11,754 nt of DNA. It comes from a virus. Lineage: Duplodnaviria; Heunggongvirae; Uroviricota; Caudoviricetes. The stretch covers positions 1 to 11,754 of IMG/VR virus record IMGVR_UViG_2671181100_000003; one strand, written 5' to 3'. The notes under the pieces are model-generated. The model made no database searches, was not told the DNA's origin, and saw only the letters and a list, made by a program, of their open reading frames with translations. Made by a program: the position numbers and the translations under genes. Shown in pieces: positions 2,807 through 11,212 of the stretch (position 1 is the first letter of the stretch; each line of letters opens with the position of its first letter).

Positions 2807-3322
2807 GTGATCGCTGAATTAACGGCAGCAATGACGGCTATTCGTGAAATCGCCCAGATTGCAAAACTAATGAACGAGGCAAAAACTCAAGCTGAAGTAA
2901 ATGCGGCTATTGGTGAGCTGAACTCAAAGCTTGCGTCTATTCAGCGCGAATGCGTGTCTCTCGTTGAACTGCTGGGCTCTTATCAAGAAATAAATGCTTC
3001 TCTCAAAGCTAAAATTGCAGAATTCGAAAACTTTGAGGCTCAGACGGAAGGCTATATCCTTAACCAACTTGAGTCGGGTACTTTTGTATACTCGAAGGAG
3101 GTAATCGTGAACGGTGACAGCATAACCATGCATCTTTGCCCAAAATGTTTTGGACAAAAGATAGTATCGATACTTCAACCATTCCCGGTTAGCGAAGATG
3201 AGCTTTTTCATAAAAGCAGGTGCCTCCACTGTGAAAATAAGTTTCTGATGAATAAAAATCCAGATTACGTATCGCCTCCATCCATTGAGGAGTTGGCCAG
3301 AAAACTTAACGGCAATCTGTAG
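2807..3322 (+). CDS. Coiled-coil protein with C-terminal CxxC...CxxC zinc-ribbon (accessory gene in the immunity region, function unknown)
   Basis: ORF-track frame 2543..3322 trimmed to GTG 2807 (AAGAG 8 nt upstream) or ATG 2831. The N-terminal ~80 aa are heptad-like and A/E/K/L-rich; the C-terminus carries CPKCF and CLHCENK ~24 aa apart. GC is ~42% against ~52-55% in the replication genes. Convergent with the repressor, own terminator downstream. Confidence 0.55.
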   Translation: MIAELTAAMTAIREIAQIAKLMNEAKTQAEVNAAIGELNSKLASIQRECVSLVELLGSYQEINASLKAKIAEFENFEAQTEGYILNQLESGTFVYSKEVIVNGDSITMHLCPKCFGQKIVSILQPFPVSEDELFHKSRCLHCENKFLMNKNPDYVSPPSIEELARKLNGNL

Positions 3323-3465: not shown

Positions 3466-3553
3466 AAAATCTAACTTAACTTAGCTATTATGGCAAGAGA
3501 AAACACCAAACTTTTCTTAGTTCGGTGCCTTAGTTAGAGAAGAGAGGTCTTAG
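3466..3553 (-). promoter_or_regulatory. Candidate left operator/promoter (OL/PL-like): leftward promoter flanked by CTTAG half-sites
   Basis: On the minus strand: -35 TTGCCA (plus 3491-3496), 17-bp spacer, -10 TAGATT (plus 3468-3473). CTTAG occurs four times within 3480-3553 (3480, 3516, 3529, 3549), the same pentamer that forms the operators between the repressor and cro. Confidence 0.3.
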
Positions 3554-4176
3554 AGTTCGTATTGAACTCCTTTGACTACACCAATGATAAGGCAATTACC
3601 ATTGATAGGGATGTTGGGATACCGAGGATTTAATGGCACTAAAAACTTTTGAGGGCCATCGATGACTAATTTTTTTACTGTAGCTTCGTTTGTTCCATCA
3701 AGTCGAGCGATGACTATTTTTCCATGACGAGGTTCTGCATCTGGATCTACAATCACTGTTGCGCCTTCTGGTATTGTTGGGAGGCCATTAGGGTTAGTCA
3801 TGGAGTCACCTTTAACCTCTAATGCAAATGAGTTATCACCAACCTTTAATGATGTATCTACCCACTTGTCCACTTCACTAAACACTTCTGCTGCCCTGCA
3901 CTCAGTAAACTGCCCAGCCTGAACCCACGATATTACAGGAACTCTGCGCATGTTTGTGACGAGTTTGCCTTCAAACTCAGCACCATAAAGAATGTAATCT
4001 ATTGACGTATTGAAGAACTTCGCTAATTTCGAAAGTGCCTCCCCACCAGGGGTATTGATGTCTTTCTCCCAGTACCCCACAGCAACGTCGCTTACTCCAC
4101 AAAATTTACCCAATTCTTTCTGGGACGTTCTGGTAACTCTTCTCAGAGCTTTTATACGCTGACCAACCGTTTCCAT
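3550..4176 (-). CDS. Phage repressor, cI/LexA-type (N-terminal HTH + C-terminal S24 autopeptidase domain)
   Basis: 208 aa. N-terminal HTH (QKELGKFCGVSDVAVGYWEKD), candidate Ala-Gly cleavage site (VQAGQF), S24 catalytic motif GDSM and Lys in TVKKL. Divergent from a cro-like gene across an operator region. Confidence 0.9.
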   Translation of the reverse strand: METVGQRIKALRRVTRTSQKELGKFCGVSDVAVGYWEKDINTPGGEALSKLAKFFNTSIDYILYGAEFEGKLVTNMRRVPVISWVQAGQFTECRAAEVFSEVDKWVDTSLKVGDNSFALEVKGDSMTNPNGLPTIPEGATVIVDPDAEPRHGKIVIARLDGTNEATVKKLVIDGPQKFLVPLNPRYPNIPINGNCLIIGVVKGVQYEL

Positions 4177-4195: not shown

Positions 4196-4266
4196 TTGCT
4201 AAGTAATCTTAGTTTTTATTGACCAAAGATAGATTTGTAATTAGCATCTAACAAAACTTAGTTTGG
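4196..4266. promoter_or_regulatory. OR-like operator/promoter region between repressor and cro
   Basis: Inverted half-sites CTAAG-TAAT-CTTAG (4199-4212), perfect palindrome AAACTTAGTTT (4254-4264), CTTAGTTT repeated at 4208 and 4257. Rightward promoter candidate -35 TTGACC (4219-4224), 17-bp spacer, -10 TAGCAT (4242-4247), upstream of the cro ATG at 4274. Confidence 0.5.
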
Positions 4267-4273
4267 AGAGCGT

Positions 4274-4474
4274 ATGACAACTGACGATATCGAAAGCTAC
4301 TTCGGCAGTATTGAGAAAGTTGCTGCTTTTTTCGGCATAACAACTGAAGCCGTTTATCAGTGGCGAAACCGTCCGGGCCAGTTAATTCCAAAAGGACGTG
4401 CAGCAGAAGCTGCATATAGAACTTGCGGACGGTTGCCATTTAAACCTGAGCTTTATGAAAAATCTAATGGATAA
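4274..4474 (+). CDS. cro: Cro-type repressor (P22 Cro-like)
   Basis: 66 aa; DIESYFGSIEKVAAFFGITTEAVYQW resembles P22 Cro (DVIDHFGTQRAVAKALGISDAAVSQW). Divergent from the repressor; GGAGAG upstream. Confidence 0.8.
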   Translation: MTTDDIESYFGSIEKVAAFFGITTEAVYQWRNRPGQLIPKGRAAEAAYRTCGRLPFKPELYEKSNG

Positions 4475-5063
4475 ATCGATTAACAGAAACCACAGAACGA
4501 TGAGGCTAACCGTGGGTAAGCATCACTGGAAAGTAGAAAAACAGCCTGAGTGGTACGTGAAAGCTGTCAGAAAAACTATCGCAGCGTTGCCGGGTGGTTA
4601 CGCTGAAGCTGCTGACTGGCTGGATGTAACAGAGAACGCATTATTTAACCGCCTTCGTGCCGATGGCGATCAGATTTTCCCGCTGGGATGGGCAATGATT
4701 TTGCAACGTGCTGGTGGAACTCACTTCATTGCTGACGCTGTGGCGCAGTCTGCAAATGGCGTCTTTGTGTCTCTTCCTGATGTCGAGGATGTGGACAACG
4801 CCGATATCAACCAACGCCTGCTGGAAGTCATTGAACAGATCGGCAGTTATTCAAAACAGATTCGTTCAGCAATTGAAGACGGTGTAGTGGAACCGCATGA
4901 GAAGACAGCAATTAACGATGAGCTGTACCTCTCAATTTCGAAGCTGCAGGAGCATGCAGCACTGGTCTACAAAATCTTTTGCGTTTCAGAAAGTAGTGAC
5001 GCCCGCGAGTGTGCAGCTCCGGGCGCCGTGGCGTGTCGTGACTGTGGAGAAACTAACGCATGA
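4455..5063 (+). CDS. CII-position early regulatory protein (CII/CP76-like by position; start uncertain)
   Basis: ORF-track frame 4398..5063. The GTG at 4398 has no usable SD spacing and overlaps cro by 77 nt; ATG 4455 or ATG 4467 (overlapping the cro stop) are likelier starts. About 200 aa, first gene after cro. Family assignment is by position and vague recollection only. Confidence 0.45.
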
Positions 5064-5398
5064 ACAGTTTAACAACACACTACCGTCGCTCGCAACTGAT
5101 TGCGCTTCCTGTACCGGGTGGAAAAGCGAAGGTGGAGTATTGCTATGCAGTAAATGTACCAGGTGACAGGGAAATTGTAACCCACAGCTTTGCAGAGTGG
5201 GCTGTGGGTGATTTCAACCGGCAGAAGGAGACAGTCCTTTGCGACAAGTTAACCGCTGGTTCAAAGATCACTACGGAGTGCCCGTCAGAGTCATTCGTTG
5301 GGAGCCGGAAACACAACGTGTTATCTACCTCCGCGAAGGCTATGAGCATGAGTGCTTCAGCCCGCTCGAACAGTTTCGTCGTAAATTCAGGGAAATAG
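5060..5398 (+). CDS. Hypothetical protein (112 aa as called); only the N-terminal ~55 aa look protein-like, possible frameshifted or overlapping gene
   Basis: ATGA overlap with the preceding stop (5060-5063). The N-terminal part ([52 protein letters not shown]) looks coding; the C-terminal ~50 aa are S/A-rich low complexity and overlap a better-looking frame (see 5239..5418). Confidence 0.3.
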
Positions 5399-5418
5399 AG
5401 GTCGGTCATGAGCACTAA
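5239..5418 (+). CDS. Small hypothetical protein (59 aa) from a TTG start; alternatively the C-terminal half of a frameshifted gene starting at 5060
   Basis: Not in the ORF track (no ATG). AAGGAG at 5225-5230, 8 nt before TTG 5239. Translation [59 protein letters not shown] is compositionally protein-like. Stop at 5416-5418 overlaps the O-like start. Confidence 0.3.
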
Positions 5419-6364
5419 ATTAACCGGCTATGTATGGGATGGTTGCGCTGCATCAGGCATGAAATTATCCAGCGTGGCAATTATGGCCCGCCTGGCTGAT
5501 TTCAGTAATGACGAAGGTGTGTGCTGGCCATCAATTGAAACCATTGCCCGCCAGATTGGCGCGGGGATGAGTACCGTCAGAACGGCTATCGCACGGCTGG
5601 AAGCAGAAGGCTGGTTAACGCGTAGGGCGCGTCGCCAGGGTAACCGCAATGCGTCGAATGTTTATCAGCTTAACGTTGCGAAGCTTCAGGCAGCGGCATT
5701 TTCTCAACTGTCAGATTCTGACCCGTCAAAATCTGACGCATCAAAATCTGACGCATCAAAATCTGACCCGTCAAAATTTGATGCGTCGAAATCTGGCAAA
5801 AAAGCGGGTTTTCACCCGTCAGAATCTGGTGGGGATCCGTCAGTAAAATCAAAACATGATCCGTCAGATAAAAAAACTTCTCGTCCGGACGCTTCGCAAC
5901 CGGACACGCAGACGGCTGAACAGGATTTTTTAACTCGCCATCCTGATGCGGTTGTATTCAGCCCTAAAAAGCGCCAGTGGGGGACGCAGGATGATTTGAC
6001 CTGCGCACAGTGGCTCTGGAAAAAAATCATCGCCCTGTACGAGCATGCCGCCGAATGTGACGGCGAGGTGGTTCGTCCCAAAGAACCGAACTGGACAGCC
6101 TGGGCAAACGAAATTCGCCTGATGTGTGTGCAGGATGGTCGTACTCATAAACAAATCTGCGAGATGTACAGCCGCGTCAGTCGCGATCCGTTCTGGTGCC
6201 GTAACGTGCTCAGCCCGTCGAAGCTGCGGGAAAAATGGGATGAGCTTTCCCTGCGCTTATCGCCGTCCGTCAGCACGTACACCGAAAAACGCGAAGACCC
6301 GTACTTCAAAGCCAGTTACGACAACGTGGACTACAGCCAGATCCCGGCAGGATTCAGGGGGTGA
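5408..6364 (+). CDS. Replication initiator, lambda O-like (N-terminal HTH DNA-binding domain, repeat linker, C-terminal domain)
   Basis: 318 aa, GAGGT 5 nt upstream. N-terminal HTH (SSVAIMARLADFSNDEGVCWPSIETIARQIGAGMSTVRTAIARLEAEGWL) is typical of phage replication initiators. An internal tandem-repeat block encodes (S/P)KSDA pentapeptides, like the iteron-encoded linker of lambda O. Position after cro/CII. Confidence 0.7.
   Translation: MSTKLTGYVWDGCAASGMKLSSVAIMARLADFSNDEGVCWPSIETIARQIGAGMSTVRTAIARLEAEGWLTRRARRQGNRNASNVYQLNVAKLQAAAFSQLSDSDPSKSDASKSDASKSDPSKFDASKSGKKAGFHPSESGGDPSVKSKHDPSDKKTSRPDASQPDTQTAEQDFLTRHPDAVVFSPKKRQWGTQDDLTCAQWLWKKIIALYEHAAECDGEVVRPKEPNWTAWANEIRLMCVQDGRTHKQICEMYSRVSRDPFWCRNVLSPSKLREKWDELSLRLSPSVSTYTEKREDPYFKASYDNVDYSQIPAGFRG
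5711..5800. repeat. Six tandem 15-bp repeats inside the O-like gene: candidate replication-origin iterons
   Basis: Units TCAGATTCTGACCCG / TCAAAATCTGACGCA (x2) / TCAAAATCTGACCCG / TCAAAATTTGATGCG / TCGAAATCTGGCAAA. Each junction forms the dyad CGTCA-AAATC-TGACG. Degenerate copies and an A-rich stretch follow to ~5880. Confidence 0.5.
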
Positions 6365-6366
6365 TC

Positions 6367-6855
6367 ATGAGTCTTTTGAATGACGTTCAGAAATTCATTG
6401 AAGCCCATCCGGGGTGTACTTCCGGAGACATTGCGGATGCTTTTGCAGGTTACTCACGACAGCGCGTTCTGCAGTCAGCAAGCAAGTTACGTCAGAGTGG
6501 GCGTGTGGCTCACCGTTGTGAAGGGGATACACGCAGACATTTCCCGCGGCTGACTGAGATACCGCAGGAGCCGGAACCGCAACCAGTTCGTGAATCCAGA
6601 CCTGTGCGCAATTTCTATGTCGGCACTAACGATCCCCGGGTGATTTTGTGCCTGACCCGCCAGGCGGAAGAACTGGAGTCCAGGGGCTTATACCGTCGTG
6701 CTGCAACGGTGTGGATGGCGGCATTCCGTGAAAGCCACTCCCAGCAAGAGCGAAACAATTTTCTTGCGCGTCGTGAGCGGTGTTTACGGAAAAGCAGCAA
6801 GCGCGCTGTATCGGGTGAAGAGTGGTATCTGTCAGGGAATTACGTGGGGGCTTAA
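6367..6855 (+). CDS. Putative transcriptional regulator: N-terminal winged-helix-like region plus PerC-like C-terminal motif
   Basis: ORF-track frame 6361..6855 trimmed to ATG 6367 (GGGGG 5 nt upstream, overlapping the O-like stop). The C-terminal motif AEELESRGLYRRAATVWMAAF resembles the PerC/Pch activator signature as I recall it. The size (162-164 aa) matches my recollection of YfdN. Confidence 0.55.
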   Translation: MSLLNDVQKFIEAHPGCTSGDIADAFAGYSRQRVLQSASKLRQSGRVAHRCEGDTRRHFPRLTEIPQEPEPQPVRESRPVRNFYVGTNDPRVILCLTRQAEELESRGLYRRAATVWMAAFRESHSQQERNNFLARRERCLRKSSKRAVSGEEWYLSGNYVGA

Positions 6856-7181
6856 TGACGACGTTAACTCAATGCCAGCAGCAGGTGCTGGATATGCTGA
6901 TTTCTTATCAGAAAGAACGTGGCTTCCCGCCAACCAATCAGGAGGTGGCAACCATGCTGGGATACCGTTCAGTGAATGCAGCGGTGGAGCATCTTCGCGC
7001 ACTGGAGAAAAAAGGCGTCATCACGATAAAGCGTGGCGTGGCCCGGGGCATCACGCTTCATACCGCGGTGAAGGACGACGACAGCGAGGCGGCCGGGATT
7101 ATCCGCGCACTGCTTGCTGGTGAGGAAAACGCCAGGCTGCGTGCAGCCCACTGGTTACATGAGAGGGGCCTGAAAGTATGA
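6855..7181 (+). CDS. LexA DNA-binding-domain-like protein lacking the S24 peptidase domain
   Basis: ORF-track frame trimmed to ATG 6855 (TAATG overlap with the upstream stop; GGGGG upstream). LTQCQQQVLDMLISYQKERGFPPTNQEVATMLGYRSVNAAVEHLRALEKKGVITIKRGVARGITL aligns by eye with the LexA N-terminus ([65 protein letters not shown]). The 108-aa product stops before any protease domain. Confidence 0.75.
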   Translation: MTTLTQCQQQVLDMLISYQKERGFPPTNQEVATMLGYRSVNAAVEHLRALEKKGVITIKRGVARGITLHTAVKDDDSEAAGIIRALLAGEENARLRAAHWLHERGLKV

Positions 7182-7567
7182 AGCTGATCCTGCCTTTTCC
7201 GCCCAGCGTGAACACGCACTGGCGACACCCCAACAAAGGGGCGTTTGCTGGTAAGAGCCTGATAAGCGCGGCGGGGCGAAAATTCCAGAGCGCGGCGTGC
7301 GCAGCAATAGTTGAGCAGTTACGTCGTCTGCCAAAACCAACGTCGGCACCTGCTTCAGTGGAGATCGTGTTGTTTCCTCCGGATAACCGGATCCGCGATC
7401 TGGACAACTATAACAAGGCGCTGTTTGACGCCCTGACCCACGCGGGTGTGTGGGAAGACGACAGTCAGGTGAAAAGAATGCTGGTGGAGTGGGGACCGGT
7501 TATCCCGGAAGGGAAGGTCGAGATCACTATCAGTAAGTACGAGAAACCGGCGGGTGCAGCCGCCTGA
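7178..7567 (+). CDS. rusA: RusA-family Holliday junction resolvase
   Basis: 129 aa with ATGA overlap to the upstream gene. Motifs LPFPPSVN, DLDNYNKALFDALT and GVWEDDSQV match the RusA family. Confidence 0.85.
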   Translation: MKLILPFPPSVNTHWRHPNKGAFAGKSLISAAGRKFQSAACAAIVEQLRRLPKPTSAPASVEIVLFPPDNRIRDLDNYNKALFDALTHAGVWEDDSQVKRMLVEWGPVIPEGKVEITISKYEKPAGAAA

Positions 7568-7586
7568 TTAAGAGGAGAAACGAAGT

Positions 7587-8384
7587 ATGAATAATCTGAT
7601 GGTTATTGATGGTATTGAAGTTCGTCGTGATGCTTATGGGCGTTACAGCCTGAACGATCTGCACAGGGCTGCCGGTTCTCTGGATAAACATAAGCCTGCA
7701 TTCTGGCTCCGCAATGAGCAAACTGAACGTTTAATAAGCGAGTTGCAGATTTGCAACTCGGTCAATATAGAGCCAGTTAACGTTATTCGTGGAGGAAATA
7801 ACCAGGGGACGTATGTCTGCAAAGAACTGGTGTATGCCTATGCAATGTGGATCAGCCCGTCATTCCATCTGAAGGTGATCCGTACTTTCGATATGGTAAC
7901 CAGCACACCGGAAAAATTATCCGGGCAGGCTGCTGACAAGATGCAGGCTGGCGTGATCCTGCTGGACTTTATGCGCCGGGAGTTAAACCTGTCTAACTCT
8001 TCAGTGCTTGGTGCCTGTCAGAAACTCCAGGAGGCTGTTGGCTTACCGAATCTGGCACCGCGCTATGCCATTGATGCTCCTGCTGACGCGCCTGATGGCT
8101 CAAGCCGCCCCACGCTGTCACTGAGTGCACTGCTGAAGCAGTATGGTATCCGCCTGACAGCTAATCAGGCATATCACCAGATGGTGAAGCTGGGGATCGT
8201 CGAGCAGCGCGAACGATACAGCCGTACCGCGATTAACAACATCAAAAAATTCTGGTCACTGACAGCGAAAGGCTGCATGTTCGGCAAGAACATCACCAGT
8301 CCCGCAAATCCGCGCGAGACGCAGCCGCATTTCTTCGAATCCCGATTCCCTGAGCTGTTAAAGCTGCTCGATACCGTTCATTGA
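7587..8384 (+). CDS. KilA-N domain protein (N-terminal KilA-N DNA-binding domain, uncharacterised C-terminal domain)
   Basis: 265 aa with strong RBS AAGAGGAGAAA. N-terminal YSLNDLHRAAG...KPAFWLRNEQTERLI...IRGGNNQGTYVCKELVYAYAMWISPSFHLKVIRTFD fits the KilA-N fold. Confidence 0.8.
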   Translation: MNNLMVIDGIEVRRDAYGRYSLNDLHRAAGSLDKHKPAFWLRNEQTERLISELQICNSVNIEPVNVIRGGNNQGTYVCKELVYAYAMWISPSFHLKVIRTFDMVTSTPEKLSGQAADKMQAGVILLDFMRRELNLSNSSVLGACQKLQEAVGLPNLAPRYAIDAPADAPDGSSRPTLSLSALLKQYGIRLTANQAYHQMVKLGIVEQRERYSRTAINNIKKFWSLTAKGCMFGKNITSPANPRETQPHFFESRFPELLKLLDTVH

Positions 8385-8385
8385 G

Positions 8386-9381
8386 GTGACCGTGAGAGCG
8401 CTACTGACCCCTGAAATTGCCCCGCGTATGGGGATCGTATTGTTCAGGCCAGGTTCAGAGCTGATGCCCCTGTTTATGCAGGGCCGTGTTCTGCTGGAGC
8501 CTGAGCCGGAGCGTTATTCATCTTTCGCCAGTGGTGCCGTTCCTGCGGCATCACAACCGCTGGCGGATGATCCTGCCGTTCTGGCCGTGTTCCGTAATGA
8601 GGCAGTGATTCGTCGTGCTGGTGGGGTGGAATGTCTTGAAAGCTGGTTACTTCGTGAAAAAGGCTGCCAGTGGCCTCATTCCGACTGGCACAGCGAGAAC
8701 ATGACCACAATGCGACACGCGCCGGGCGCAATCCGTCTGTGCTGGCACTGCGATAACCAGCTTCGCGATCAGTTCACGGAACGGCTGGAATCAATGGCAA
8801 CGGATAACTGTGCCCGCTGGGTGTTGTCTGTTGTGCGTCGGGATCTCGGTTTTGATGATAGTCACGTTGTGACAATGCCGGAACTGTGCTGGTGGCTGAT
8901 TCGTAATGATCTGGCAGATGCCTTACCGGAAAGTGCAGCCCGTAAGGCACTGAGATTACCGAAGCCTGTTGTGCCGTCTGTCACCCGGGAAAGTGACCTT
9001 GTGCCTTCGGTTCCTGCCACCAGCATCATCCAGGATAAGGCGAAAAAGGTGCTGGCGCTGAAAGTGGATCCGGAGTCGCCGGAGTCTTTTATGTTACGCC
9101 CAAAACGCCGCCGCTGGGTTAATGAAAAGTACACGCGCTGGGTTAAGACACAGCCGTGTGCATGTTGTGGAAAGCCTGCTGATGATCCCCACCACCTGAT
9201 AGGTCACGGTCAGGGTGGAATGGGTACAAAAGCGCATGACCTCTTTGTGTTGCCTTTGTGCAGAAAGCATCACGACGAGCTGCATGCGGATACCGTGGCA
9301 TTTGAAGAGAAGTATGGCTCCCAACTGGAGCTGATATTTCGTTTTATCGATCGCGCGCTGGCGATTGGTGTGTTGGCCTGA
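8386..9381 (+). CDS. DUF968-like nin-region protein with C-terminal Cys/His-rich (HNH-like) motif
   Basis: 331 aa from GTG 8386 (start uncertain; internal ATG at 8428). C-terminal CACCGKPADDPHHLIGHG...LCRKHHDELH suggests a zinc-binding nuclease-like motif. Family assignment from memory of YdfU-like prophage proteins. Confidence 0.55.
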   Translation: MTVRALLTPEIAPRMGIVLFRPGSELMPLFMQGRVLLEPEPERYSSFASGAVPAASQPLADDPAVLAVFRNEAVIRRAGGVECLESWLLREKGCQWPHSDWHSENMTTMRHAPGAIRLCWHCDNQLRDQFTERLESMATDNCARWVLSVVRRDLGFDDSHVVTMPELCWWLIRNDLADALPESAARKALRLPKPVVPSVTRESDLVPSVPATSIIQDKAKKVLALKVDPESPESFMLRPKRRRWVNEKYTRWVKTQPCACCGKPADDPHHLIGHGQGGMGTKAHDLFVLPLCRKHHDELHADTVAFEEKYGSQLELIFRFIDRALAIGVLA

Positions 9382-9398
9382 TTTGGTGGAGAAAGTTG

Positions 9399-9764
9399 AT
9401 GCGTGATATTCAGATGGTTCTGGAGCGTTGGGGAGCATGGGCGGCGAGTGATAGTTCTGGAGTAGACTATTCGCCTATAGCTGCTGGGTTTAAGGGGCTT
9501 CTTCCCTACACAAGCAAAACACGTCAGGCTTGTTCAGATAGTGATGCATTAATTATTGAAGGTTGTCTTGCTCGTCTAAAGCAAAAAAAGCCAGATGAGC
9601 ACTCGCTGCTTGTGGCACATTATTTATACAGAATATCCAAGCGTAAGATTGCAAAGGTGCGTGGAAAGGATGAAAAATTGGTACGCATAGAAATACAACT
9701 AGCCGAAGGATTTATTGATGGTTGCCTTTCAATGTTGGATGTTAACCTTGAAATGGACGCTTAG
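9399..9764 (+). CDS. Late-gene antiterminator Q (small Q family)
   Basis: ORF-track frame 9396..9764 trimmed to ATG 9399 (GGAG 7 nt upstream). The N-terminal motif DIQMVLERWGAWAA...DYSPIAAGFKGLLP matches my recollection of the small antitermination-Q family. Last gene of the rightward early operon. Confidence 0.7.
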   Translation: MRDIQMVLERWGAWAASDSSGVDYSPIAAGFKGLLPYTSKTRQACSDSDALIIEGCLARLKQKKPDEHSLLVAHYLYRISKRKIAKVRGKDEKLVRIEIQLAEGFIDGCLSMLDVNLEMDA

Positions 9765-9770
9765 GGTTGC

Positions 9771-9800
9771 ACAGGTTGGCCCCATATGAGGCCAACCTGT
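9771..9800. other. Perfect 11-bp inverted repeat (hairpin) between convergent Q and membrane-protein genes
   Basis: ACAGGTTGGCC (9771-9781) / GGCCAACCTGT (9790-9800) with an 8-nt loop. It starts 7 nt after the Q stop and abuts the membrane-protein stop codon (9800-9802). No adjacent U-tract on either strand, so not a canonical intrinsic terminator. Confidence 0.4.
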
Positions 9801-10261
9801 CACAAGTGGGGGAAGATTTTTCGTAACACTAACCAACACCTTCCGAAGGTATATAGCGAAATTATAAGGGAGGATAAGCCTAACAGTATGAATAGGAAAT
9901 CAATAGGTTTGCCCGCAACAATAACATCATCTGGTAGAAACATCGCTATCAATGGAAATATACATGCGACGATGAGAGTTAACCCTGTTGAAAGTAATCG
10001 ATTTACCAGAGTTGGTAACACGTTGTTTTGCTTAAGGGCATTAATTGCTCCTTCCTTATCGCTGTTTGCACTACTAAATATAGATATTGCAGCCAGAACA
10101 AAACCAAACAGGATGCCTGATATAGTCGAGAGCACCCCCGCTGTTGTGAGTACGTCAGCATGCTTCATCGGTTTAAACAGTTTTGTCGCTGCATAGGTCA
10201 ACAGAATCCAGAGGACGCATTTCCAGAGAAAAGTGGCTAATTCTCTCATTGTGTCCTCCAT
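9800..10261 (-). CDS. Small integral membrane protein, four predicted TM helices (second gene of the two-gene cassette)
   Basis: 153-aa ORF; the likely start is the second ATG at 10249 (GGAGG 5 nt upstream), giving 149 aa. Four hydrophobic segments (~residues 10-28, 37-63, 85-109, 120-140) with short loops and no soluble domain. Separated by ~20 nt from the upstream 313-aa gene. Confidence 0.6.
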   Translation of the reverse strand: MEDTMRELATFLWKCVLWILLTYAATKLFKPMKHADVLTTAGVLSTISGILFGFVLAAISIFSSANSDKEGAINALKQNNVLPTLVNRLLSTGLTLIVACIFPLIAMFLPDDVIVAGKPIDFLFILLGLSSLIISLYTFGRCWLVLRKIFPHL

Positions 10262-10270
10262 GCTTGGTTA

Positions 10271-11212
10271 TTAGTCTCTGCTAGCGAGCTCATACTGTGC
10301 AAGATAGTTCGCGTTATCAATTTTAGCAGATATCATCGCCGTTCTGATATCAGAATCGGATGGATAACCGCTTTTGACAATGATTGTCTTTGTACTGACC
10401 AATACTTGGTCAAGTAGACTTTTGGGCGTTCTATTGGATGGCTCTGTTACATCAATTTTTTTAATTTTTAGACCTCCAGAACCTTTTGGAAAAAGTTCAA
10501 GTAGTTCCTTAATAGCATCGGTGACAGAAGTTTTTAGATAGTTAAAACCTTGTTTTTTCGGGCGAATCCGACCTCGCATATTTAATCTTAGATGCGACCC
10601 GCCCATACCAACAACCATGTCAATAATTTCATTAGCTAAAGGGTTTTTAATCTTATAATTAGCTTTGTTAAAGTTTCTTGGAGCAGCAACTATAAGATCG
10701 AAACTACGTAGGATATTTCCGTCCTCAAGCAGTTCCTTCATGCTCTCTTGTTTCCAAATGGCTTCAAAAGTGACGCTTTTTAAATCAGTTTTGTTATACA
10801 AAATGAATGCCAGATCATTTACTTTGGGCCCTATATGGTTGAGGGTCATAGCTAATAAATCCGTTTCGTAGTAATAGATAAAATATGTTCTTTCAACTAC
10901 AGAATCTTTATCATTTAAAGGAATTGTTCTCTCACTACCTGTAGCATCCTCGATGAACGGTAGTAGGCATTCCCTTCTCCACGATACGTAACCAAAGTAA
11001 CATTGCAGTGTGGTATCTTTTTGAAGAATAACTAACTTTAACCCTCGATTTGGGGTGTCTGTTGTGTAAGTTATTGGAAAAGTTACAGTATCTGCTGTGG
11101 TCATTTGCTCAAAGGCTAGTTTTGCAGCAGATGTGCCATCTTTTTTGCTTCCATTACCAGTGAAAAAACCAACTCTCACTCGCCTAGTTTTATTCTTATT
11201 TTCTGTACTCAT
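10271..11212 (-). CDS. Uncharacterised 313-aa soluble protein (first gene of the two-gene cassette)
   Basis: Long ORF with no recognisable catalytic motif by eye (no Walker A, no clear nucleotidyltransferase GS...DxD). K/N/T-rich, GC ~35-42%. Opposite in orientation to all flanking phage genes. Confidence 0.65.
   Translation of the reverse strand: MSTENKNKTRRVRVGFFTGNGSKKDGTSAAKLAFEQMTTADTVTFPITYTTDTPNRGLKLVILQKDTTLQCYFGYVSWRRECLLPFIEDATGSERTIPLNDKDSVVERTYFIYYYETDLLAMTLNHIGPKVNDLAFILYNKTDLKSVTFEAIWKQESMKELLEDGNILRSFDLIVAAPRNFNKANYKIKNPLANEIIDMVVGMGGSHLRLNMRGRIRPKKQGFNYLKTSVTDAIKELLELFPKGSGGLKIKKIDVTEPSNRTPKSLLDQVLVSTKTIIVKSGYPSDSDIRTAMISAKIDNANYLAQYELASRD

Follow-up and report, generated by a model that had tools for sequence, protein, structure and literature searches.

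The prophage gene yfdN, located behind the replication initiator of a lambdoid early region, encodes a PerC-family protein with a predicted N-terminal winged helix

The early region and the yfdN gene

The window, i.e. the whole stretch of 11,754 nucleotides analyzed here (IMG/VR virus record IMGVR_UViG_2671181100_000003), corresponds to the early part of a lambdoid prophage of the SfIV/SfII/CPS-53 type. Its features are listed in Table 1. From cro through Q, all genes are encoded on the plus strand with ends that overlap or nearly abut. A consensus scan lists no plus-strand promoter- or terminator-like sites within 4247-7568, and an Rfam scan of the window returned no RNA family. The pR-like match upstream of cro is the probable source of the yfdN transcript, an assignment that follows from the lambdoid gene order.

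As judged from DNA identity, the flagged gene is the already known and annotated prophage gene yfdN. Its 489-bp open reading frame is 100% identical to the yfdN loci of CFT073, IHE3034, NCTC86, APEC O18 and others, and the RefSeq name of the product is 'PerC family transcriptional regulator'. A yfdN match is present in about half of the complete E. coli genomes (2,674/5,426). The gene is among the commonest E. coli prophage genes, and its carriers include uropathogenic, avian-pathogenic and Stx2a-phage strains. The block from the initiator gene to rusA (5408-7567) is found at 96-98% identity in phages SfII, SfIV, SfV and mEp460 as well as in several ECOR13-derived phages and Stx2a-converting phages, and some of these phage records already tag yfdN as PerC family. 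Uhlich et al. described yfdN as 'the K12 unique PerC homologue' and deleted it to obtain a clean background (PMC5931665). No functional experiment was found in the literature on yfdN. The other mentions come from screen or transcriptome lists and give no mechanism, namely a glycogen screen, a region in a filamentation screen, a nitric oxide transcriptome and a predicted interactome. What is contributed here is the persistence of the two-domain architecture, the counts of initiator adjacency, and the accessory status of yfdN.

That the reading frame is a real gene, well beyond chance, is confirmed at the sequence level by the PerC profile score of 39.1 bits, the phrog_1324 match, 205 database relatives and a dN/dS below 1 in both domains. 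The gene extends from an ATG at 6367 to a TAA at 6853-6855. RefSeq chooses an in-frame GTG at 6361 instead, which yields 164 aa. The ATG appears to be the better supported start, since all distant homologues start with MS(L/I/M), their ATG overlapping the stop codon of the initiator. In the window, the initiator ends with a TGA at 6362-6364, just 5' of the yfdN ATG, and the translation of yfdN appears to be coupled to that of the initiator gene. The first-pass annotation had placed the gene immediately after the replication initiator and within the early right operon. The former agrees with the positions of these two codons, the latter with the cro-to-Q order on the plus strand and with the lack of intervening promoter- or terminator-like sites on this strand.

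At its 3' end, the yfdN stop overlaps, as read from the sequence, the ATG (6855) of the gene for a protein consisting of a LexA DNA-binding domain (TAATG). This gene in turn overlaps the start of rusA as ATGA (7178-7181), and is translationally coupled to both neighbors by these junctions. The LexA-type protein has a short tail and lacks the S24 peptidase domain, so that it could occupy SOS boxes without being cleaved. The initiator gene carries five tandem 15-bp iterons (5696-5795, consensus TCTGACCCGTCAAAA) and one inverted copy (5809-5828). The iterons encode a repetitive SDASKSD peptide, and the array is probably the phage origin, located within the initiator gene as in lambda O.

Table 1 Features of the early region, with yfdN and its predicted domains
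Feature	Position	Strand	Evidence and remarks
cI-like repressor	3550-4176	-	
pR-like promoter match, TTGACC-17-TAGCAT, 5' of cro	4219-4247	+	consensus scan alone
cro	4274-4474	+	
cII-like	to 5063	+	
small ORF	5060-5398	+	
HTH_36/DnaD-type replication initiator, O-like	5408-6364	+	Pfam HTH_36; phrog_391, E 2e-134
Shine-Dalgarno-like AGGGGG	6356-6361	+	read from the sequence; 5 nt 5' of ATG 6367, within the final codons of the initiator
yfdN-type gene, predicted wHTH + PerC domain, 162 aa	6367-6855	+	ORF list; PF06069; phrog_1324; 100% DNA identity to yfdN
N-terminal winged-helix domain (predicted), residues 1-60	6367-6546	+	AlphaFold pLDDT 82-92; Foldseek; profile; phrog_1687 MarR, E 1e-4
Pro/Glu-rich linker, residues 61-89	6547-6633	+	predicted disordered, pLDDT 45-47
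PerC/ANR-like three-helix domain, residues 90-150	6634-6816	+	PF06069; BLASTP to EPEC PerC; AlphaFold; Foldseek
C-terminal tail EEWYLSGNYVGA, motif L-x-G-x-[YF]-x-G	6817-6852	+	alignments A2, A3; pLDDT ~54
LexA DNA-binding-domain-only protein, 108 aa	6855-7181	+	PF01726, 69 bits; phrog_362
RusA	7178-7567	+	
KilA-N protein	7587-8384	+	
DUF968/HNH	8386-9381	+	
Q	9396-9764	+	

Domain architecture and family membership

The AlphaFold model of YfdN was built on 20 relatives and has a mean pLDDT of 80. It resolves into an N-terminal winged helix (residues 3-60) and a three-helix PerC/ANR-like domain, which are joined by a disordered linker. The predicted winged helix is composed of helices 3-13, 19-25 and 31-44 and a beta-hairpin at 47-60, with a pLDDT of ~90. 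In a Foldseek search of the PDB, the first ~60 residues superpose on SmtB/ArsR, YgaV, MarR, BlaI, MecI and SqrR at 1.5-3 Å (probability 1.0), and the family profile matches BlaI (1p6r) with an E-value of 2e-4 and MarR with 1.5e-3. None of the Pfam wHTH families reaches its cut-off with YfdN, and the few relatives that match Penicillinase_R, MarR_2 or HTH_24 all do so below threshold. The winged-helix assignment thus derives from the model together with weak profile matches. Residues S39, K40, L41, R42, R46, R57 and H58 of helix 3 and the wing, several of them basic, are invariant in alignment A1, and both folded domains of YfdN are basic (pI 9.4 and 11.3). Given the predicted fold and these basic side chains, the N-terminal domain most likely binds DNA. 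A link to phase-variation regulators of the PapI/FaeA type was hinted at by a match to PDB 2htj (E 0.003), a FaeA match in one relative and the adjacent Dam methylase in many relatives. It was set aside, as the similarity of the winged helix to this type is not stronger than that to BlaI or MarR. The linker varies in length and sequence; in alignments A1 and A2 it is poorly conserved and interrupted by indels.

The helices of the PerC domain (90-105, 109-122 and 126-149) are modeled with a pLDDT above 90. Residues 98-150 (6658-6816) match positions 5-57 of the 90 positions of the Pfam PerC model PF06069 with 39.1 bits (E 9e-10) at a gathering score of 22.6. The motif AEELESRGLYRRAATVWMAAF corresponds to residues 100-120 (nt 6664-6726). 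As authentic PerC, the 89-aa protein from plasmid pMAR2 of EPEC E2348/69 was used for comparison. BLASTP aligns residues 98-153 of YfdN to residues 6-61 of PerC at 30% identity (17/56, E 1e-6), pairing AEELESRGLYRRAATVW with AKYLEEKGFYRRAADRW and RRERCL with KRAFCI, and the region common to both proteins is the N-terminal core of PerC. The PerC/Pch-like C-terminal motif seen on first inspection therefore holds up in the profile search and in the alignment to EPEC PerC. The winged-helix-like region proposed to be fused to it is likewise supported, by the three helices and beta-hairpin modeled at ~90 pLDDT, by Foldseek, and by the BlaI profile match. With 162 aa, including the added winged helix and the linker, YfdN departs from the single-domain PerC norm of about 90-105 aa, and it is a variant architecture inside the Pfam PerC family. 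Among PHROGs, phrog_1324 ('transcriptional activator') covers residues 1-161 (E 1e-77), and the two halves also match separate groups, phrog_23071 (residues 1-103) and phrog_2608 (residues 80-162). YfdN is 99% identical to protein cluster P0001.

A second family, ANR, matches the same part of the protein. The NCBIfam model NF033650 (ANR_neg_reg) is matched by residues 96-142 with 24.0 bits (E 2.5e-5), below its cut-off of 32. In a Foldseek search of viral models, the C-terminal bundle (residues 90-149) superposes on A0A4Y5TXW2, an Aeromonas phage protein of 60 aa named 'ANR family transcriptional regulator', with an rmsd of 0.6 Å over 57 columns and a target TM-score of 0.92. The ANR-type three-helix fold of ~60 aa is present in residues 90-149 of YfdN only. 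None of the solved structures searched by sequence profile matches the PerC domain.

The closest known counterparts, YfdN of the K-12 prophage CPS-53/KpLE1 and yfdN of CFT073 (c3191), represent the same gene with the same length and two-domain layout. The K-12 copy resides in a degraded prophage, whereas the window is an apparently intact early region. PerC (EPEC pEAF/pMAR2) and PchA/B/C (EHEC prophages) have in common with YfdN a homologous core of ~55 residues (K-A-x-x-L-E-x-x-G-x-x-R-R-A-A-x-x-W ... R-R-x-x-C), and all three are borne on mobile elements. However, PerC (89 aa) and Pch (104 aa, from 315-bp genes, PMC5931665) have a single domain, and their sequences start at the core motif, while YfdN additionally has a 60-residue predicted winged helix, a linker and the conserved LxGxYxG tail and lacks the C-terminal 30 residues of PerC. 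The gene positions also differ: PerC/Pch genes are located in virulence operons or at cargo positions of prophages, yfdN in the early operon after the initiator. The ANR family, exemplified by Aar of EAEC, resembles the PerC domain of YfdN in its small three-helix fold and in detectable sequence similarity. ANRs are anti-activators of ~60 aa without a DNA-binding domain, in contrast to YfdN with its predicted wHTH, and Aar is linked functionally to H-NS-family proteins (PMC5570504), a link that may extend to YfdN by analogy. PerC-like proteins of PICIs (EcCIMP1_025; EcCIEDL933, EcCICFT073) belong, like YfdN, to the PerC family and are encoded on phage-related mobile elements of E. coli, but on another type of element and at another gene position, and they are likened to YfdN by family, not by sequence. 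They demonstrate that family membership need not mean LEE1 activation (PMC11773190).

Conservation and gene neighborhood

An exhaustive search of 1.84 billion representatives yielded 102 relatives, comprising full-length two-domain proteins of 140-165 aa with identities down to ~25% as well as PerC-only proteins of 80-95 aa. The two-domain architecture is retained to ~25% identity in prophages of Phytobacter, Kosakonia, Enterobacter and Pantoea (Enterobacterales). All 30 distant two-domain relatives that were aligned match PF06069 (E ≤0.01). Among the aligned relatives, only L103, R111, A112 and C139 are invariant. The L-x-G-x-[YF]-x-G tail is shared by the two-domain family and three short proteins of 90-92 aa; the PerC-type short proteins, whose sequences start at the K-A-E-E-L-E core, do not have it. 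The dN/dS of yfdN ranges from 0.08 to 0.6 in both domains and is highest in the linker (0.4-0.6).

A comparison of the window gene with a Shigella allele (L030, 3001-3480) gave a dS of ~2.8 for the wHTH half and 0.37 for the PerC half. These unequal values point to a recombination joint inside yfdN, with wHTH alleles that would have been exchanged separately and domains that would differ in their histories.

For the gene neighborhood, IMG/VR loci were combined with loci in Shigella, Phytobacter, Kosakonia, Enterobacter and Pantoea genomes; the narrower alignment A4 yielded 16 genome loci, and a locus search with P0149 found nothing. Upstream DNA is retained in 19 loci, and in 18 of these the wHTH-PerC gene is encoded directly 3' of an HTH_36/DnaD-type initiator, in most cases with the two genes overlapping as ATGA; one of the 18 has an initiator fragment at the contig edge. 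Typically, a methylase (Dam or MT-A70), a LexA-domain gene and RusA are found further 3' in these loci. Of the 20 wHTH-PerC loci with scannable downstream DNA, 12 also contain the LexA-domain gene. In mEp460, SfV and Stx2a phages, yfdN and the LexA-like gene flank a Dam methylase gene (L027 4567-5220, L028 4567-5220); this gene is missing at the 6855 junction of the window and likewise in SfIV and CFT073. Distant relatives have another methylase family, MT-A70, in this slot.

The C-terminal tail of the initiator (..VDYSxIPxGFR(G/S), window 6290-6361) is kept in divergent alleles, including P0262, P0309 and P0284, and is conserved whether a PerC gene, a DnaC-like loader or nothing comes next. 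The tail is a candidate docking peptide for a host factor. A different arrangement is found in Enterobacterales bacterium CwR94 (L043, 2141-3883), where an intact wHTH-PerC gene is located directly between a cI-like repressor and Q. This remnant is devoid of cro, cII, initiator, LexA-like gene and RusA.

Possible roles of YfdN and other features of the window

We give about an even chance to the reading that yfdN is an accessory early prophage gene whose product is tethered to DNA and modulates either silencing by nucleoid proteins or another regulator. After induction or infection, the cro-side promoter would drive rightward transcription of the gene, and its translation would be coupled to that of the replication initiator gene. 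As modeled, the protein consists of two folded parts on a flexible linker. Its basic winged helix would bind DNA, and its basic PerC/ANR-type domain would, by analogy, disturb silencing complexes of the H-NS family or another regulator. As long as the early operon is on, YfdN would act on silenced, AT-rich DNA of the phage or the host. Of this scheme, the analysis establishes the identity and family membership of the gene, its domain architecture, its place in the operon and its conservation, while DNA binding, the connection to H-NS, the targets and the sign of regulation are what we infer. A repeat search revealed no inverted or direct repeats in or beside yfdN as a binding site, and PADLOC gave no defense-system match for YfdN. 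A winged helix tethered to a PerC/ANR module is a reasonable entry to the poorly understood mechanism of PerC and Pch.

The analogy is drawn from several characterized relatives. Pch lifts the silencing of LEE1 by H-NS/StpA/Hha and thereby activates it, and is present on DNA at many loci (PMC4764244), and the ANR protein Aar, which is similar in structure, binds directly to H-NS and AraC-type regulators (PMC5570504) as well as to AggR (PMC5570504, PMC4983702). Fukui et al. did not co-precipitate H-NS with PchA (PMC4764244), and the H-NS link may for this reason be indirect. Other members behave differently: PchD and PchE do not activate LEE1 (PMC5931665) and barely affect ler, PchE represses csgD (PMC6265319), and a PICI PerC-like protein represses LEE1 and shows no activation (PMC11773190). 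Since family members differ in sign and target, the function of YfdN is not transferable from PerC, and a control of host virulence loci by YfdN would not be a safe conclusion by analogy to PerC.

The position of yfdN might alternatively mark its product as the hidden second component, in the lambda P position, of a replication module that seems to have only one protein, and as a helper of the initiator at the origin. The adjacency to the initiator persists even at 24-37% identity, no helicase or helicase-loader gene is located 3' of the wHTH-PerC gene in these modules, and mosaic joints keep the last ~75 bp of the initiator together with yfdN. This reading is nevertheless regarded as very unlikely and was downgraded because close initiators (59-73% identity) occur without any downstream PerC gene. 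A Klebsiella initiator (73% identical) is followed by a methylase and RusA, an E. coli initiator (59%) by an IstB/DnaC-type loader, and a Pantoea initiator (61%) by a ParB-like gene. The tail IPxGFRG is also present in initiators that lack a PerC gene, which identifies it as a feature of the initiator and not as a docking site specific to YfdN. Conversely, the CwR94 remnant has the wHTH-PerC gene without an initiator, the K-12 yfdN is intact although its prophage is defective, and PerC-family relatives such as perABC on pMAR2 and the PICI copy are regulators unlinked to replication genes. As related initiators occur without yfdN and the remnant has a wHTH-PerC gene without an initiator, yfdN is, from its genomic context, an accessory gene and not a replication partner. 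The gene could also be a decaying passenger without current function that is carried along by prophage mosaicism. Many database entries are truncated or fused, the gene is split by a frameshift at one IMG/VR locus (L025), and yfdN has no known phenotype. Such decay is highly improbable in view of a dN/dS far below 1 in both domains, full-length two-domain proteins that persist in several genera at identities as low as 25% and keep invariant core residues, and intact yfdN copies that are 100% identical in many unrelated strains.

Among regulatory roles, YfdN could act as an ANR-like anti-regulator whose PerC/ANR domain sequesters the H-NS family or AraC/XylS-type regulators purely by protein contact, which is considered rather unlikely. 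That the outcome would then be net repression or a retuning of host regulators instead of promoter-specific activation, with the winged helix serving for dimerization or partner binding and not for DNA binding, is likewise judged somewhat improbable. The ANR_neg_reg match, the close superposition on the 60-aa ANR family protein and the direct binding of Aar to H-NS and AggR speak for such a role, as does the LEE1-repressing PICI protein of the PerC family, which its authors suspected to be ANR-like (PMC11773190). However, the ANR score falls below its cut-off whereas the PerC score exceeds its own, ANRs are single-domain proteins of ~60 aa, and a well-folded basic wHTH that is retained throughout the two-domain clade argues for DNA contact. 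Distinctly unlikely is a dedicated anti-silencer, i.e. a DNA-tethered wHTH-PerC protein that strips H-NS-family proteins from AT-rich phage DNA or rewires H-NS-silenced loci of the host, with PerC and Pch as its truncated, domesticated descendants. If true, this widespread prophage lineage would make the anti-silencer together with its initiator, and the origin, late region or cargo genes would be examples of its phage targets; the rewiring of host loci would occur during induction, and the virulence regulators PerC and Pch would derive from an ordinary phage early protein.

Two further features were observed outside the early right operon. Downstream of Q, an AT-rich (36-43% GC) cassette of two genes is encoded on the minus strand (9800-11212). 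Its products, a predicted membrane protein of 152 aa (phrog_8552) and a protein of 312 aa (phrog_7651), have neither a Pfam match above the curated cut-off nor a PADLOC match. The cassette occupies the position of cargo genes and may be a defense or exclusion system; SfIV has a similar minus-strand pair between Q and the lysis genes. Between the early-left genes and the repressor, a plus-strand gene (2849-3322, phrog_1244) encodes a 157-aa protein with a coiled-coil N-terminus and two CxxC pairs (CPKC ... CLHC).
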